Shown in pieces: positions 43,933 through 57,298 of a stretch of 64,000 nucleotides of DNA (its first letter is position 1; each line of letters begins with the position of its first letter). The translations under genes were made by a program, and so were the position numbers. Origin of the DNA: Coprobacillus sp. (GTDB lineage: Bacteria; Bacillota_I; Bacilli_A; RFN20; CAG-826); assembly GCA_021203805.1 (NCBI GenBank), contig JAJQAM010000046.1, positions 23,840 to 87,839 of the forward strand, written 5' to 3'. The notes beneath the pieces were generated by a model that was given only the letters and a program-made list of their open reading frames with translations, was not told the DNA's origin and ran no database searches.

Positions 43933-43962
43933 AAAAAAAGACTTCAACGAAGTCATTTTTTT
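43933..43962. terminator. Bidirectional rho-independent terminator
   Basis: AAAAAAA-GACTTC-AAC-GAAGTC-A-TTTTTTT, between convergent genes. Confidence 0.75.
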
Positions 43963-43979: not shown

Positions 43980-44165
43980 TTAGTTGCCTTTATTTAGAGA
44001 ACGATAAGCGTGAGCAGACATTTTGACACGGGTTTTCTTCCCATCCACAATGATGGTGTGTGTCTGTAAGTTGACGTTCCATTTTCTACGTGTGGCAATC
44101 ATTGATTTAGAGCGTTTGTTACCGCTTTGGGGTCCCTTACCGCTATAAGTACAAACTCTGGACAT
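43980..44165 (-). CDS. rpmB: 50S ribosomal protein L28
   Basis: 61 aa, MSRVCTYSGKGPQSGNKRSKSMIATRRKWNVNLQ. GGGAGG SD. Confidence 0.95.
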   Translation of the reverse strand: MSRVCTYSGKGPQSGNKRSKSMIATRRKWNVNLQTHTIIVDGKKTRVKMSAHAYRSLNKGN

Positions 44166-44227: not shown

Positions 44228-44683
44228 TTAAAATTTCACATTTGGATAGCTTAAATGAAAATCTTCTTCACTGATAAGACTTTTGCATTCTTTAAGCATG
44301 ATGGAATAGATCTTCCCGTCTTTGTCAAAAGTGAGATATTTCTTATAGCCTTCCCTAGTAAAAAAGCAGACCATTTTTCTCTTTTCAGAGACCGCTTTAT
44401 CGATGTAGATGATGTTATCTAGTTTATAAGTGGTCTTTCTAAACATTCTCACCTGAACCACTTCGCTTTTACTAACGAGGTAGTAGTTTTGAGTGATTGA
44501 TAAGATGTAGAAGACAATGGAGAGGATAAGCCACACTCCAATAATCGTATAGGGCTGCCAGGTGCTCCACTTTTCAGGAGTCACAAATACGCTAAAGAAG
44601 ATTCCAAAAAGCGCTGCCGCGACAATCACGATAGCGATTAGGAATGTGTAGGTTATTTTCCATAGACCAAGCTTTAATTTCAT
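44228..44683 (-). CDS. Small membrane protein (2 TM + cytoplasmic PH-like domain), last gene of the dTMP-related operon
   Basis: 151-aa ORF with an ATGA overlap to the upstream gene. No recognised catalytic motif. Confidence 0.6.
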   Translation of the reverse strand: MKLKLGLWKITYTFLIAIVIVAAALFGIFFSVFVTPEKWSTWQPYTIIGVWLILSIVFYILSITQNYYLVSKSEVVQVRMFRKTTYKLDNIIYIDKAVSEKRKMVCFFTREGYKKYLTFDKDGKIYSIMLKECKSLISEEDFHLSYPNVKF

Positions 44684-45276
44684 ATCACGAATTTATCCGC
44701 TCCTGTGAGCTCTAAAAACTGAGGGAGTGATTCGCACCAATCGCAAAACTCATGCCACTCTTTTAGCTTATGATTTTTTCGCTGTATATACATGGTTTTA
44801 AGCTGCTGATAATTAGTGGTCATGGTCGCTCCTAGACAGAACCCTGCGGGAAGAGAGGCGACGATTTCTCTCCACTTTTCGCTTTTAGCCACTGGGTCTT
44901 CAAGCGCGTTCCACTCATCGACAAGTCCCTCTAAGATTTTAATCACTTCTTTATTAGTTTCATCAACGCACTGCTCACTGATTTTAAATTTCATGAGGCT
45001 ATGCATTGTGGACTGAGAGGAGACAAAATCAAACCAGTGATAACGCTGAGCCTGTTTCCACCAATACTGAGGCGCGGTGACATCCATTTGCACAATAATT
45101 CCTTTAAGGTAATTATCATGTCCTTGTCCGTTTTGAGCGGTTCCTAAGCTTTTTGCTCTCGCGAGATCTTTTTCGGTTACTTCCCCTCTATCAAAGACGG
45201 TTCTCATGGGATTACCGCTTGCTTTTACGGACTTATTAAGTCCGTATACTTCAGTATTTTCAATCTTGAAGTTCAT
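44680..45276 (-). CDS. ThyX (Thy1)-fold protein with a non-canonical ThyX motif; candidate divergent flavin-dependent thymidylate synthase
   Basis: 198 aa. ...GQGHDNYLKGIIVQMDVTAPQYWWKQAQRYHWFDFVSSQSTMH... aligns by eye to T. maritima ThyX [40 protein letters not shown]. Operon context with dCMP deaminase and FolD. Confidence 0.55.
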   Translation of the reverse strand: MNFKIENTEVYGLNKSVKASGNPMRTVFDRGEVTEKDLARAKSLGTAQNGQGHDNYLKGIIVQMDVTAPQYWWKQAQRYHWFDFVSSQSTMHSLMKFKISEQCVDETNKEVIKILEGLVDEWNALEDPVAKSEKWREIVASLPAGFCLGATMTTNYQQLKTMYIQRKNHKLKEWHEFCDWCESLPQFLELTGADKFVI

Positions 45277-46063
45277 AATATGCCTCCATTAAGTTCTTCA
45301 TCAATGAGAGTCTAGTAAGTAGGCCCACTCCCTTAGGGACAGGGGTCTGTAGTCTCACCGGTAAACCGGGGAGAGAGTCGCCGTGAAGTTTTCCGTCTTC
45401 TCTTGTTATTCCTACGTCCACAATAACCGCGCTCTCCTTAAAGGTAAACGAGTCATCTAAAAAGTGTTTATGACCAATCGCAATGACGATGATATCCGCC
45501 ATGGCGACATATTTTTTCATGTCTTCTTTACTCGTATGGGAATGAAGAGTGGTGACGTTACCGTTTTCATTAAGTAAGACCTTTGCCATTGGTTTACCAA
45601 CGATGTCGCTTCTTCCAATGACGACGCAGTTTTTTCCGTCGATCTCTATCTCTTCTTCTTTTAGATAATCTAGGATTCCCCTTGGGGTACAAGGGGTAAA
45701 GTGAGATAAAGGATTAAACCCATCGATATCCTTAGCGGGATCGATGGCGCATTTAACGTGAGCGGGATTAATTTGAGGGGGAAGAGGAAGCTGGACAATA
45801 ATACCATGAACATCTTTATTGTGGTTTAAATCATTAATGAGTCTAAGAAGGTCTTCTTCCCTCATATCAAGGGGGCATTTCATATGCTGAACATTAATTC
45901 CTAGCTCTTGAGCGTCTTTTATCTTTCCTGCGATATAGATATTACTGCCTTCATCTTCATTGACCTGGATAATCGTAAAATAAGGGGCCACTCTTAGCCC
46001 GCTAACTTCTTCTCTGATTCGCTCTTTTTCCTGCTTTACGTATTCAGTTATTTCCATTTTCAT
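45260..46063 (-). CDS. folD: Bifunctional methylene-THF dehydrogenase / methenyl-THF cyclohydrolase
   Basis: 267 aa with HGIIVQLPLP, KDIDGF, PCTP, VIGRSDIVGKP and TPVPKGVGLLT. Confidence 0.9.
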   Translation of the reverse strand: MKMEITEYVKQEKERIREEVSGLRVAPYFTIIQVNEDEGSNIYIAGKIKDAQELGINVQHMKCPLDMREEDLLRLINDLNHNKDVHGIIVQLPLPPQINPAHVKCAIDPAKDIDGFNPLSHFTPCTPRGILDYLKEEEIEIDGKNCVVIGRSDIVGKPMAKVLLNENGNVTTLHSHTSKEDMKKYVAMADIIVIAIGHKHFLDDSFTFKESAVIVDVGITREDGKLHGDSLPGLPVRLQTPVPKGVGLLTRLSLMKNLMEAYYELQD

Positions 46064-46548
46064 TTGTAATTAATCTCCGGAATACGTCCCTCGTATTTTC
46101 TAACCTTTACTCCCGCTAGCTCAAGAAGCTTCTTACTTGCCTGAGTGCTTACTTGCTCGGGATATTTATCTTCAACATATATCACTTCTTTAATTCCGGT
46201 TTGAATTATAGCTTTTGCGCATTCATTACAGGGAAAGAGGGTCACATAAAGATGACATCCCTCGAGGGCGCTTCCATTTCTTGTATTAAGTATGGCGTTA
46301 AACTCAGCGTGACAAACATAGAGATACTTGCTATCTAGTCCCTCCCCTTTATTCCAGGAGAGCTTAGACTCATCCACTCCCGCGGGCATTCCGTTATAGC
46401 CGATCGACACCACTTTATGGGCCTCATCAGCGATGCACGCTCCCACCTTCGTGTTTGGATCTTTACTTCGTAAAGAGGAAAGCACTGCTATCCCCATAAA
46501 ATATTCATCCCAGTTAATATCTGCTTTCATACCTATTTCCTTAATCAC
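46060..46548 (-). CDS. comEB: dCMP deaminase (ComEB type)
   Basis: 162 aa with zinc motifs HAEFNAI and PCNECAKAI. Confidence 0.88.
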   Translation of the reverse strand: MIKEIGMKADINWDEYFMGIAVLSSLRSKDPNTKVGACIADEAHKVVSIGYNGMPAGVDESKLSWNKGEGLDSKYLYVCHAEFNAILNTRNGSALEGCHLYVTLFPCNECAKAIIQTGIKEVIYVEDKYPEQVSTQASKKLLELAGVKVRKYEGRIPEINYK

Positions 46549-52822: not shown

Positions 52823-53587
52823 ATGAATTTAATGGTGGACGTGGGTAACTCCACAGTTGTCCTTGCCCTTTTTGAGGGCAGTGACATTAAAGCAAAGTTT
52901 AAAATTAAGACGGACACTCATATGAGTCAAAGCGAAATCGAAGTGGAAATTCGTTCGCTTTTTTCTTCGCGTGATTTGCCCTTATCAGTAGTTAAAAGCA
53001 TCGTCTATTCAAGCGTTGTCCCAGTGCTGAATCATAGCATTAAAGAAGCTTTAGCTTCTTTATTTAACGCTGATATTCTTACTATTGGAGCGGGCACTAA
53101 AACGGGACTAGCTCTTCTTATTGATTCCCCTAGTGAAGTGGGAAATGACCTAGTCGCGGATCTAGTCGCCGCTAAGTTTGTATATGGAGCCCCCGCTCTT
53201 ATCGTCGATATGGGAACGGCGACGAAGTTCCTCTTCCTTGATAAAAACGGTGCCTTTAGCTCCGCTCATATTGTCCCGGGCCTAGTTAAAAGCGCGAATA
53301 ATCTTAAAGAATCCGCCTTCCTTCTTCCGGAGGTAGGCCTAGAAAAACCCAAAGGCTTTATTGCGAAGAATACGATCGATGCCATTAATAACGGAATCAT
53401 CTATTCAAACGCGGAAATGATTAAAGGCATGGCGAGGGAGTATAAAAAGGCCTACGGCTATGACTTTAAAGTAATTATTACCGGAGGATGCGCTAATCTT
53501 GTCACGGATTTACTCTCCTTTCCTTTTACCTATGATGAGGATCTACTCATTAAGGGACTAAATATCATATTAGAAAAGAATAAATAA
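52823..53587 (+). CDS. coaX: Type III pantothenate kinase
   Basis: 254 aa with MVDVGNS, VDMGTATK and ITGGCA motifs. GGGAGG SD. Confidence 0.9.
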   Translation: MNLMVDVGNSTVVLALFEGSDIKAKFKIKTDTHMSQSEIEVEIRSLFSSRDLPLSVVKSIVYSSVVPVLNHSIKEALASLFNADILTIGAGTKTGLALLIDSPSEVGNDLVADLVAAKFVYGAPALIVDMGTATKFLFLDKNGAFSSAHIVPGLVKSANNLKESAFLLPEVGLEKPKGFIAKNTIDAINNGIIYSNAEMIKGMAREYKKAYGYDFKVIITGGCANLVTDLLSFPFTYDEDLLIKGLNIILEKNK

Positions 53588-55593
53588 TGACTAATAAAGC
53601 CATCTATAAAATGACAACATATGCAATGATAATTGCCATCATTGCGGTTATGACTTTCATTCCTGAGGTTGGCTATATCTCAATCGGTGGAGTCATCTCT
53701 TTTACCACTGTCCATGTCGTGGTCTTAATATGCGCCATGGTCTTTGGCTGGCAGGAAGCCTTTGTCGCGGGTATTACCATGGGAGTGTGCTCCCTAATTA
53801 AAGCCGCGGCCATGCCTCAATCGGTTTTTGACCCCGACTTTATTAATCCCTTTATATCCGTTCTTCCTAGAGCGATATTTGGCTTAGCTGCGGGTTTTAC
53901 TTATGAAGGAATTAATAAAATTCCTTCACGCGGAGCGAAATACACCCTTGCGATTATCGCCGCTCCTGTATTAACATTATTTCATTCAGTCATAACATTA
54001 TCATGTTATTGGCTATGGGATTATCTATGGTTTCCGATTCATGAAGGGACGATGATGGCCCTCTTATCGACGATATTTACCGTTAACGGCCTGATTGAAA
54101 TGGGAATAGCTCTTGTTCTCGTGCCCTCGATCTCACTAGGCGTCGCCGCTGGTCTACACGGGAAAAACCATGGAATGAAATTTGAAGAACTACTAAGGAG
54201 AAAGAAAACAATGTATCCAAAACTTGTAAAAGACTACGAGACTCCTCTTAAAGAGAACCTCGTTAAATTCTGCGCGATTAACTCCGCTTATGATGAAGCG
54301 AGTAGTGACGAGGCTAATCCCTACGGACTAGGCGTTACCAAAGCTCTTAACTTTATTAAAGATTTAGCGACTTCTGACGGCTTTCGGGCCACCATCTACG
54401 ATAATCAGGTATGCGAAATCCTTATAGGTGAGGGAGAAAAGAATATTACGATTATGTCTCACTGTGACACAGTCCCCGCGGGAGACGGCTGGGAAGGGGA
54501 TCCCTTTACGGTCCGCGAGGAAGACGGAATTCTTTACGGTAGAGGCGTCTCTGATGATAAAGGGCCAACACTCTCGGCGTATTACGCCGTTAAAGCTCTA
54601 AGCGATAATCATATGCTTGGTAACTATCAGGTAAGAATTCTTGTCGGTGGGAATGAAGAGAGAGGCTCTAGCGAGCTTAAATACTATTTTCACACTTTAA
54701 ATAAAGCGCAGCCGACATACGGCTTTACTCCAGATAGCGATTTCCCTCTCGTCTACGGTGAAAAAGGAATGATTAACTATATGGTAAGAGGAAAGGTTGA
54801 TATCCCAGGGGTAAAGTCTATAAAAGCAGGGACTGCTTTTAACGCGGTTATTGATAAGTGCTCTATTACAATGGAGGGTGGAGAAAAGCTTGCCGCTCTA
54901 CTAGCGGAAGATAATATTCCTTATAGCCTAGAAAAAGGTGAAGAAGGCGATGAAGTCATAGTCTATGGGAAAAGCGCTCATGGATCAATGCCTGAAAAAG
55001 GCATAAACGCTGGAATGCTTGGGCTTAAATATCTATCTAAGCTATACCCAGAATGCGAGATTAAAGTACTCGCTAAAAACTATGAAAACGTCAATGGACT
55101 TGGAATTGGAGGATATGCTAGCTCCTCTGTCTTTGGCCTAAATACTCTTAACGTTGGTATTATTACCTATGAAAATGGAGAGCTTATTATGGCGGTTAAT
55201 TTCCGTCATGGCGAGACCACTGACCCGGAAGTAGTGATGAAAAATATAGAGGAAAATACCGCTCCATTTGAAGCTAAATTTATGGGAACGGATAAGTTAC
55301 TTTATTATCCTACAGACTCTCCACTTGTGAAGACCCTTTTAAAGGCCTATCGAGATGAGACAGGAGACATCTCGACTCAGCCTTACGCTATCGGCGGAGG
55401 CACCTATGCTAAGGAAGCGGATAATGTCGTGGCCTTTGGAATTGAGAAGGCGGATTTTGATACCTATATGCACTCTAATAAAGAAAGAGTAAAAGTAAGT
55501 GCTCTTAATGAAGCGATGGCTATCTATGCTCATGCCATTGTCGATCTAGGAAAATTAATTGAAAATGAGAACGAAGTACAAAGCGTGGGCTAA
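53587..55593 (+). CDS. Fusion ORF: ECF-transporter S-component-like 6-TM domain (aa 1 to about 195) + M20 dipeptidase PepV/Sapep-like domain (aa about 209 to 668)
   Basis: A single 668-aa frame with no stop. The C-terminal part carries M20 motifs SHCDTV, GRGVSDDKGP and GGNEERGS. An internal AAGGAG (54195..54200) plus ATG (54211) sits exactly at the PepV N-terminus. Confidence 0.7.
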   Translation: MTNKAIYKMTTYAMIIAIIAVMTFIPEVGYISIGGVISFTTVHVVVLICAMVFGWQEAFVAGITMGVCSLIKAAAMPQSVFDPDFINPFISVLPRAIFGLAAGFTYEGINKIPSRGAKYTLAIIAAPVLTLFHSVITLSCYWLWDYLWFPIHEGTMMALLSTIFTVNGLIEMGIALVLVPSISLGVAAGLHGKNHGMKFEELLRRKKTMYPKLVKDYETPLKENLVKFCAINSAYDEASSDEANPYGLGVTKALNFIKDLATSDGFRATIYDNQVCEILIGEGEKNITIMSHCDTVPAGDGWEGDPFTVREEDGILYGRGVSDDKGPTLSAYYAVKALSDNHMLGNYQVRILVGGNEERGSSELKYYFHTLNKAQPTYGFTPDSDFPLVYGEKGMINYMVRGKVDIPGVKSIKAGTAFNAVIDKCSITMEGGEKLAALLAEDNIPYSLEKGEEGDEVIVYGKSAHGSMPEKGINAGMLGLKYLSKLYPECEIKVLAKNYENVNGLGIGGYASSSVFGLNTLNVGIITYENGELIMAVNFRHGETTDPEVVMKNIEENTAPFEAKFMGTDKLLYYPTDSPLVKTLLKAYRDETGDISTQPYAIGGGTYAKEADNVVAFGIEKADFDTYMHSNKERVKVSALNEAMAIYAHAIVDLGKLIENENEVQSVG

Positions 55594-56188: not shown

Positions 56189-57298
56189 ATGGAAGAGATT
56201 GAAGTTAAACTTAAAGAAGAAGGAAAAATATCGCGTCTTACCAATAAGACCTTTAAATTTGATCCTAAACTTGGAGAAGGCTACTATTCCGCTAATTATT
56301 TTCTAAAAACAAGAGAAATAGTGGCTAAGCTTGCTCCTAATCATAGAGTAACTATGCAGTGGTTTCAGCGCCGCGATAATGTGATGCTATGCGGAATTGA
56401 TGAAGCGATTGCCATTTTGCATACTTTTTCCCCGCATCCCGAGGATCTTGAGATTGTCGCCCTTAATGATGGCGATATGATAAGTGCTGAGGAGCCAGTT
56501 TTAAAAGTAACTGGGAAATACGAAGATTTTGGTTTTCTTGAAAGCGTTATTGATGGAGTCCTTGCGAGACGATCAAGCGTTGCCACTAACACCAAAGAAG
56601 TTTTAGACGCCGCTGGGTCCACCCCAGTATTTTCGATGGCGGACCGTCAGGATGACTATCTCACTCAGGTGGGCGATGGATATGCTTCTTATGTCGCTGG
56701 AATTAATAGAGTCTCCACTGACGCTCAAGGCGAGTGGTGGGGAGGTAAGGGAATGGGGACGATGCCTCATGCCCTAATTCAGATATGCGGAGGCGATCTC
56801 TGTAAGGCGGGAGATTTATACTACAATATGTTTCCTGAAAATGGAGTGACATCACTTGTTGATTATAACAATGATGTGGTTAGTGACTCCCTTAAACTTG
56901 CTCGTCATCTAGGCACTAAACTCCATGCCGTGAGAGTGGATACTTCCTCCTCTTTAATCGATCATTATTTTGATGATAAAGACACAAGTGGGTTTGATCC
57001 ACATGGCGTTTGTAAAGAGCTTATCTTTGCTCTTCGTAACGCTCTTGACGCAGAAGGTTTTACTTATGTTGATATTGTGGTGTCTAGCTCCTTCTCTAAA
57101 GAAAAGATTAAAGAATGGACAAGTCTAGGGGTTCCGGTGTCGATGTACGGCGTTGGAACATCGCTTGTTAATAATACAACTTGCGGATTTGTGGGAGACC
57201 TTGTCGTCCTTGACGGCAAGGATGAAGCGAAAGTTGGAAGATATAATATTCCTTCTTCCCGCCTTGAAAAAGTCCCTTATCCTATTTACAATAGGTAA
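56189..57298 (+). CDS. pncB: Nicotinate phosphoribosyltransferase family protein (type II PRTase)
   Basis: 369 aa. The overall pattern (YFLKTREI..., GTMPHALIQ, VRVDTSS, YGVGTSL) fits the short NAPRTase family. Confidence 0.7.
   Translation: MEEIEVKLKEEGKISRLTNKTFKFDPKLGEGYYSANYFLKTREIVAKLAPNHRVTMQWFQRRDNVMLCGIDEAIAILHTFSPHPEDLEIVALNDGDMISAEEPVLKVTGKYEDFGFLESVIDGVLARRSSVATNTKEVLDAAGSTPVFSMADRQDDYLTQVGDGYASYVAGINRVSTDAQGEWWGGKGMGTMPHALIQICGGDLCKAGDLYYNMFPENGVTSLVDYNNDVVSDSLKLARHLGTKLHAVRVDTSSSLIDHYFDDKDTSGFDPHGVCKELIFALRNALDAEGFTYVDIVVSSSFSKEKIKEWTSLGVPVSMYGVGTSLVNNTTCGFVGDLVVLDGKDEAKVGRYNIPSSRLEKVPYPIYNR

Follow-up and report, generated by a model that had tools for sequence, protein, structure and literature searches.

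A ThyX-fold protein encoded beside folD in uncultured gut Bacilli and in phages is a candidate thymidylate synthase with a probably remodelled cofactor site

The window analysed here is a 64,000-nucleotide stretch of a Coprobacillus sp. assembly (GCA_021203805.1, contig JAJQAM010000046.1, positions 23,840 to 87,839), and it contains, on the minus strand, an open reading frame (ORF) of 198 amino acids (aa) with an ATG start (44680..45276) whose product is predicted to have the fold of the flavin-dependent thymidylate synthase ThyX. This fold, taken together with the placement of the gene next to folD, implied that the protein is probably an unrecognized kind of thymidylate synthase. The interpretation that we favor is that of a folate-dependent enzyme that methylates deoxyuridine monophosphate (dUMP) and in which the cofactor site has been remodelled; given the model and the gene neighborhood, the protein would most likely act as the thymidylate synthase of the cell. 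A Coprobacillus sp. metagenome-assembled genome encodes a hypothetical protein with exactly the sequence of the window protein, whose only family match was to the phage protein family phrog_6721 (1.6e-60, 205.5 bits), of which it is a full-length member, with residues 2-191 aligned to profile positions 7-215 of 218.

The relationship to ThyX had to be established by structure prediction, because direct sequence searches found none. The hidden Markov model (HMM) search against PF02511 that the original prediction had proposed as a check left the window protein unmatched at E≤1, and a tblastn search of the window with Thermotoga maritima ThyX did not touch the 44680..45276 ORF. The AlphaFold2 model, built with 58 family sequences, had a predicted local distance difference test score (pLDDT) of 95.8 and a predicted template modelling score (pTM) of 0.88. 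When this model was compared with the Protein Data Bank (PDB) by Foldseek, all of the top 50 matches listed were ThyX structures, from Helicobacter pylori and T. maritima, with E values of 1e-7 to 1e-6 (best, 1.1e-7), a probability of 1.0, TM scores of 0.55 to 0.73, and sequence identities of 14 to 19%. In the viral structure library BFVD, the first two matches were uncharacterized phage proteins, and nearly all of the named significant matches after them were annotated as ThyX-like or as thymidylate synthases. The structurally unrelated synthase ThyA (PF00303) gave no Pfam match to the window protein, and no ThyA structure was present among the 50 PDB matches listed. A tblastn search of the window with Escherichia coli ThyA returned a single match (56768-57004; E, 0.011), which was rejected as a chance similarity, the ORF at that position having the N-terminal domain of quinolinate phosphoribosyltransferase (QRPTase).

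Weak sequence signals were consistent with the structural result. In an hhalign comparison with T. maritima ThyX, the sequence of which was checked against the PDB, residues 35-82 aligned to residues 35-82 with an E value of 0.0015, and comparison with an alignment of 23 ThyX sequences placed residues 37-80 on residues 37-80 with an E value of 0.005, or of 3e-4 when a more diverse family alignment was used. In addition, PF02511 matched 7 of 48 diverse relatives weakly (best, 1.7e-5), and reciprocal HMM searches between the family and ThyX gave consistent weak scores of 8 to 16 bits. The original prediction had proposed the ThyX fold from an alignment made by eye and had noted a length about 20 aa below that of canonical ThyX; the length held (198 versus 220 aa), and the fold was confirmed at the level of the predicted structure, which places the ORF product in the ThyX (Thy1) structural superfamily as a deeply divergent member.

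The RHR motif of ThyX, together with Arg165, forms hydrogen bonds with the AMP phosphate, the ribityl group, and the flavin mononucleotide (FMN) phosphate of flavin adenine dinucleotide (FAD), and the first arginine of RHR also contacts the isoalloxazine ring and dUMP (PMC6514825). The window protein has the motifs G52-H53-D54, Q75..R78-Y79-H80..D83..S86-S87-Q88-S89-x-M91-H92, P143-x-G145, N155-Y156-x-Q158, and Q165-R166..H169..E173-W174. The ThyX signature RHR-x7/8-S(-x-R-Y) is absent, the corresponding stretch reading R78-Y79-H80-W-F-D-F-V-S-S-Q-S-T-M-H, and R78, the first arginine of RHR, was the only motif residue kept in register with ThyX by hhalign. Since the register was the same over residues 37-80, RHR has become RYH, with Y79 invariant in the family and H80 present in 75% of members. 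The residues that replace ThyX His79, Arg80, and Arg165 are therefore an invariant tyrosine, mostly a histidine, and a variable residue, respectively, and these replacements imply that cofactor binding has been remodelled.

Beyond residue 80, the methods disagreed on the register of the loop. Global and local hhalign runs with whole proteins and with halves, and hmmsearch with the ThyX HMM, shifted the register by 0, +1, or +3 positions or required an insertion of 13 residues; family members carry Lys or Thr at position 90 and Arg, Lys, or Ser at position 93. The ungapped alignment to T. maritima ThyX on which the original prediction had relied has the hhalign register through residue 80, with G52-H53, Q75, and R78 coinciding, and two of the four substitutions that it had listed, H79 to Y and R80 to H, are accordingly supported, whereas the other two, R90 to M and the arginine of the NAR motif to Q, depend on a register on which the methods disagreed. 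A second, C-terminal match claimed at the same time was not significant as a sequence alignment on its own (E, 0.1), but the secondary-structure elements matched, and a natural fusion protein, P0129, described below, supports the correspondence. In the AlphaFold2 model, the invariant R166 ends a helix equivalent to the ThyX helix that ends in Arg174, and R166 is taken as the probable equivalent of Arg174 because each arginine ends the corresponding helix and because of the P0129 fusion.

The family to which the window protein belongs is large and strongly conserved. Clustering gave 2131 clusters at 90% identity (E≤1e-3) and, at 50% identity, 2976 representatives; relatives were present in 563 GTDB species representatives and on at least 426 viral contig stretches, and the source names shown in the protein searches were all "hypothetical protein." No description of PHROG 6721 or of this ThyX-fold family was found in the literature searched. 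Transfer from phages, in which the family is far more diverse, is the probable origin of the gene in the bacterial clade. Conservation was assessed in 48 members that were only about 40% identical to the query. The invariant or near-invariant residues were L44, G52, H53, G59, V62, R78, Y79, S86, S87, S89, M91, and H92 in the first part of the protein and P143, G145, N155, Y156, Q158, Q165, R166, H169, and W174 in the second. These residues fall in the segments that bear the ThyX active-site residues, and about half of them differ in identity from ThyX, a pattern that indicates a remodelled working pocket rather than decay. Moreover, in each of the 78 loci compared, conservation was higher for the ThyX-fold protein than for the FolD beside it, the median identities among the 78 species being 68.7% and 54.4%, respectively.

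A composite active site was suggested by P0129, a 456-aa protein in which two family domains are fused in tandem and have lost complementary motifs. The GHD, RY, and QR..H motifs are retained in domain 1, from which the SSQSxMH loop has been lost; domain 2 keeps SSQSTMH and has lost R78/Y79 and Q165/R166/H169. One ThyX active site is built from the RHR arginine and Arg174 of chain A and the Ser/Arg/Tyr loop of chain C (PMC6514825). The split in P0129 mirrors this division, which argues for a ThyX-like composite site in which R166 belongs with R78; by this analogy, the family probably has an intersubunit composite active site like that of the ThyX homotetramer. Many other long members, among them seven of 390 to 470 aa (P0122, P0157, P0171, P0182, P0185, P0244, and P0266) carry an in-frame endonuclease insert, HNH_3 with AP2 in addition in some, in a variable loop that corresponds to window residues 27-37. 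An intein origin of the long members was considered and rejected, the inserts having HNH_3 and AP2 domains and none of the Pfam intein domains. Insertion of HNH-type endonucleases is known in thyX and thyA genes. An endonuclease invasion of thyX is recorded in the title of reference 7 of PMC6514825, and invasion of this kind is typical of highly conserved phage DNA-metabolism genes.

The bacterial gene neighborhood was surveyed in the best 80 GTDB species-level loci, the hosts of which were uncultured gut Bacilli labelled Coprobacillus, Erysipelotrichaceae, Mollicutes, or Bacilli. In 78 of the 80 loci, the gene directly upstream, on the same strand, was folD. The flanks of the pair varied by subclade and included glgC/glgD, NrdD(-Grx)/TrxB-like flavoprotein/NrdG genes, UvrB and SecG genes, GatA/GatB genes, and an M29 aminopeptidase gene, and the survival of the folD pair through these rearrangements is a classical sign of functional coupling. 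A gene for deoxycytidine monophosphate (dCMP) deaminase was found upstream of folD in 17 of the 80 loci, as it is in the window, and with linkage at that frequency the deaminase is not an obligate partner. In one subclade (L069:4665-7948, L080:3008-3694, and about 11 to 15 other species loci), the folD pair was preceded by nucleotide-reduction genes for an NrdD that has a fused glutaredoxin domain, an NAD(P)H flavoprotein resembling TrxB, and an NrdG-like activase of the radical S-adenosylmethionine type. The TrxB-like flavoprotein could be a reductant partner of the ThyX-fold protein.

Among phages, homologs were encoded in 25 GenBank records, including Clostridioides difficile phiCD211-like, Fusobacterium Fnu1-like, Clostridium perfringens, and Enterocloster phages. 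Larger phages placed the family gene among genes of deoxynucleotide metabolism, in the orders NrdD-Grx-NrdG-dUTPase...thymidine kinase-[family gene]-5'-nucleotidase (NT5C), Grx-NrdD-NrdG...FolD...[family gene], and class II ribonucleotide reductase (RNR)-[family gene]...deoxynucleoside monophosphate (dNMP) kinase. The 131-kb Fusobacterium phage Fnu1 encodes the family protein as gp109, together with its own FolD (gp151), NrdD/NrdG, and a dUTPase. A phage that carries FolD needs a consumer of 5,10-methylenetetrahydrofolate (methylene-THF), and the family protein is the candidate for this role; the complete Fnu1 genome yielded no known enzyme that consumes folate, and a second contig with a phage FolD homolog, L171, was viewed only around the gene. 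The FolD homologs that occur beside the family gene in phages (L090:9906-10742, which is Fnu1 gp151, and L171:4041-4859) are seemingly unusual for phage genomes. On a jumbo-phage-sized contig of 349 kb (IMGVR_UViG_3300024999_000029; L103 and L125), two family paralogs lie about 175 kb apart, and both adjoin dUTPase and 5'-nucleotidase genes.

For the window operon, these observations can be assembled into a proposed pathway. The cotranscribed dCMP deaminase would provide dUMP as the substrate, the translationally coupled FolD would keep 5,10-methylene-THF in supply, and the ThyX-fold protein would transfer the methylene group of 5,10-methylene-THF to dUMP and yield deoxythymidine monophosphate (dTMP). 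The active site would lie between subunits, with R78, R166, and H169 contributed by one chain and the S86-H92 loop contributed by another. Activation of the substrate through R78 and R166 is plausible, with R166 possibly acting in the role of the uracil-polarizing Arg174. Cofactor binding would be altered, such that FAD may be held differently or replaced by FMN or by another hydride source. The original prediction had left three options, a highly divergent but functional synthase, a ThyX-derived enzyme with a changed substrate or cofactor, and a pseudoenzyme; thymidylate synthase function is favored by the folD linkage in 78 of 80 loci, the deoxynucleotide gene clusters, and the phage modules, and the pseudoenzyme has fallen away, which leaves either the same or a changed chemistry. 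We put forward only tentatively a stronger proposal, that the family represents a third, mechanistically distinct kind of thymidylate synthase in which a ThyX scaffold without the RHR/Arg165 clamp on the FAD pyrophosphate receives its hydride from elsewhere; the source could be FMN, the folate itself (as it is in ThyA), or a flavoprotein partner, of which the adjacent TrxB-like reductase would be an example. The same tentative proposal has the family supply the only thymidylate synthase of an order-level clade of uncultured gut Bacilli and of many Firmicutes and Fusobacteria phages.

Several observations weigh against thymidylate synthase function. In the family, no conserved basic residue occupies the position of Arg147, which binds the dUMP phosphate in ThyX, and the FAD-phosphate ligands His79, Arg80, and Arg165 have no conserved basic counterpart; with these FAD and dUMP-phosphate ligands lost, canonical binding of flavin and dUMP is not assured. 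H53, which is otherwise near-invariant, is replaced by Glu (G-E-D) in some phage members, among them Fnu1 gp109 (L089:32601-33236) and P0122. No Pfam or NCBIfam model, PF02511 included, matched the window protein at E≤1, and no PDB sequence was matched with phmmer or with the family profile. In most small temperate phages, the gene is located in a replication/recombination module that carries little functional information, and one chromosomal member (L175:6001-6573, Clostridia bacterium JAQVDB010000002.1) has neither folD nor phage genes nearby and sits between genes for a homoserine dehydrogenase and a short-chain dehydrogenase. In favor of synthase function, the genes thyA, thyX, folA, and tdk were absent within ±10 kb of 160 loci and from the 64-kb window, although a canonical thyA or thyX gene may lie elsewhere in the host genomes, beyond the ±10 kb surveyed. 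Also in its favor, the complete Fnu1 genome had no annotated or detectable ThyA or ThyX, and the phage records pCD1602_4 and MT835485 likewise yielded neither, in a screen whose ThyX profile was made from Thermotogae-type sequences and may miss a very divergent ThyX.

The altered pocket could also mean that the same fold and the use of folate have been retained for another pyrimidine substrate or product, a reading that we consider rather unlikely. Conceivable reactions are the conversion of dCMP to 5-methyl-dCMP, which the coencoded deaminase would then turn into dTMP, the formation of 5-hydroxymethyl-dUMP or 5-hydroxymethyl-dCMP, and a methylation of uridine monophosphate (UMP) like that of PolB. 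The positions that contact the base and the phosphate in ThyX are altered in the family, the basic residue at Arg147 being lost and the Arg90/Tyr91 region rewritten as M91-H92; changes of substrate, and even of cofactor, are known within the thymidylate synthase superfamilies; and the family is abundant in phages. Homologs of ThyA make 5-hydroxy-dCMP with flavin (PMC13326640), and a phage route to dTTP employs a dCMP methylase followed by a deaminase specific for the 5-methylcytosine (5mC) base (10.1101/2024.12.05.627091). Against such a change, the bacterial gene occupies a housekeeping position, with linkage to folD in 78 of 80 loci versus 17 of 80 for the deaminase, nothing points to modified DNA in the host bacteria, and Gln75, Arg78, and the invariant Arg166 are residues that a uracil/dUMP site would keep.

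We judge it very unlikely that the protein is a folate-dependent methyltransferase of nucleic acids, one that would make 5-methyluridine (m5U) in tRNA or rRNA or modify a DNA base in a manner analogous to TrmFO/RlmFO. Bacilli and mollicutes do use folate/FAD-dependent RNA m5U methylases (PMC7226160), and loss of an Arg147-type phosphate clamp could suit a polymer substrate, and many temperate phages place the gene among those for DNA replication and recombination. However, the protein consists of one compact ThyX domain of 198 aa and has no nucleic acid-binding domain, and its informative neighbors encode enzymes that act on free nucleotides (dCMP deaminase, RNR, dUTPase, thymidine kinase, 5'-nucleotidase, and dNMP kinase). 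We know of no described ThyX-fold nucleic acid methylase, and none was found in the literature searched. The broken RHR..S..R signature and the failure to match PF02511 could be expected of a noncatalytic ThyX derivative, whether a pseudoenzyme or a protein that binds nucleotide or folate and regulates FolD or deoxynucleoside triphosphate (dNTP) pools, but such a protein is the least probable of the readings weighed here. About 20 polar residues are invariant or near-invariant at active-site positions across sequences that are about 40% identical, phages with small genomes retain the gene, and the way in which the two domains of P0129 divide the motifs is that expected of a composite catalytic site. 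The thousands of members, the invariant polar residues, and the greater conservation than that of FolD in 78 of 78 loci effectively exclude the pseudoenzyme option.

Compared with known systems, the family is closest to ThyX/Thy1 (PF02511; TM0449, PDB 1O26; H. pylori, PDB 3N3Y), with which it shares the fold, the size (198 aa versus about 210 to 220 aa), the G-H at 52-53, Gln75, the first motif arginine in register, the helix ended by arginine, a probable composite site, and the genomic company of nucleotide and folate metabolism. It differs from ThyX in its identity of 14 to 19%, the unmatched Pfam model, the change of RHR to RYH, a length shorter by about 20 aa, the replacement of the x7-S-x-R-Y loop by an invariant SSQSxMH, and the Arg147 and Arg165 positions without a conserved basic residue. 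Because both the Pfam model and the RHR-x7-S motif failed, the protein was placed as a variant within the ThyX superfamily and not as ThyX. PolB (PDB 4P5A), a ThyX paralog that methylates UMP at C5 in polyoxin biosynthesis, is likewise a ThyX-fold enzyme with a diverged substrate, and it has kept the folate and flavin chemistry (PMC7226160). In contrast to the window family, which is far more divergent, 4p5a still matches T. maritima ThyX at 3.7e-34, and PolB belongs to an antibiotic biosynthesis cluster, whereas the window family occurs in housekeeping or phage DNA-metabolism contexts.

The ThyA-superfamily variants, which include the T4 dCMP hydroxymethylase, the Xp12 dCMP methylase, and the RB69/DLP3 5-hydroxy-dCMP synthase, provide a precedent for retooled synthase scaffolds in phages (PMC13326640; 10.1101/2024.12.05.627091), but they have an unrelated fold (ThyA, PF00303), and searches for ThyA at the loci of the window family were negative. 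PHROG 6721 is a phage family of unknown function that includes the window protein over its full length; the PHROG entry has no functional annotation and makes no mention of the bacterial clade linked to folD.

Only ThyA and ThyX, in addition to salvage, are recognized as sources of dTMP, and "no other dTMP synthesis is presently known" (PMC7226160). Thousands of members of the family escape Pfam and NCBIfam and were annotated as hypothetical in the names shown, so that metabolic reconstructions would wrongly score these gut Bacilli as thymidine auxotrophs. If the family does consist of working synthases with a rewritten cofactor site, it would reveal how much of the ThyX motif is dispensable, would offer a new class of antifolate or antimicrobial target that is absent from humans, and would add an auxiliary metabolic gene to phage annotation.

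Within the window, the ThyX-fold gene is the third of four minus-strand genes. The order, the coordinates, and the overlaps of 4, 17, and 4 nucleotides (nt) given in the original prediction were exact, and the identities that it had assigned to the neighboring genes were borne out by domain matches and by the ORF sequences. The first gene (46060..46548, minus strand) encodes a ComEB-like dCMP deaminase (PF00383, 2.8e-27; TIGR02571 ComEB, 9.5e-24) with HAE and PCxxC zinc motifs, for which the start is probably ATG 46530, preceded by AGGAA, rather than GTG 46548. The second (45260..46063, minus strand) encodes FolD, a methylene-THF dehydrogenase/methenyl-THF cyclohydrolase (PF02882, 2.5e-42; PF00763, 1.9e-29; NCBIfam FolD models). 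The deaminase and FolD genes overlap by 4 nt (46060-46063), FolD and the ThyX-fold gene overlap by 17 nt (45260-45276), and the ThyX-fold gene overlaps by 4 nt (44680-44683) with the last gene (44228..44683, minus strand), which encodes a 151-aa protein with two predicted hydrophobic, membrane-spanning segments at the N terminus. The terminator scan found no terminator-like site between the four genes; the first one downstream was a bidirectional terminator-like hairpin at 43940-43954, past rpmB (43980-44165, minus strand), the gene for ribosomal protein L28, which has a promoter-like site of its own at 44227-44200 in the promoter scan. An L28 homolog also follows in the closest loci.

The 151-aa membrane protein had no significant family match in Pfam, NCBIfam, PHROG, or PADLOC. 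By tblastn it was detected downstream in 9 of 80 loci, and ORF clustering recovered it in 7 of 80, in all cases in the closest relatives of the window, and is a variable accessory, not a core part of the system. A defense role was also considered for the ThyX-fold protein and rejected; the ThyX-fold protein, FolD, and the membrane protein had no match among the PADLOC defense models, and the similarity of the deaminase to defense proteins reflects a shared domain only. The deaminase matched the PADLOC dCTPase model (630 positions) at 1.9e-32 and the NCBIfam model "anti-phage dCTP deaminase" at 5.9e-26, but only the deaminase domain common to them is matched, about 80 residues out of model lengths of 437 to 630 positions, and the window deaminase is not a defense protein. 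Elsewhere in the window, a 668-aa ORF (53587-55593, plus strand) fuses the S component of an energy-coupling factor (ECF) transporter (PF12822) to an M20 peptidase domain (PF01546) and is located directly downstream of a type III pantothenate kinase gene.

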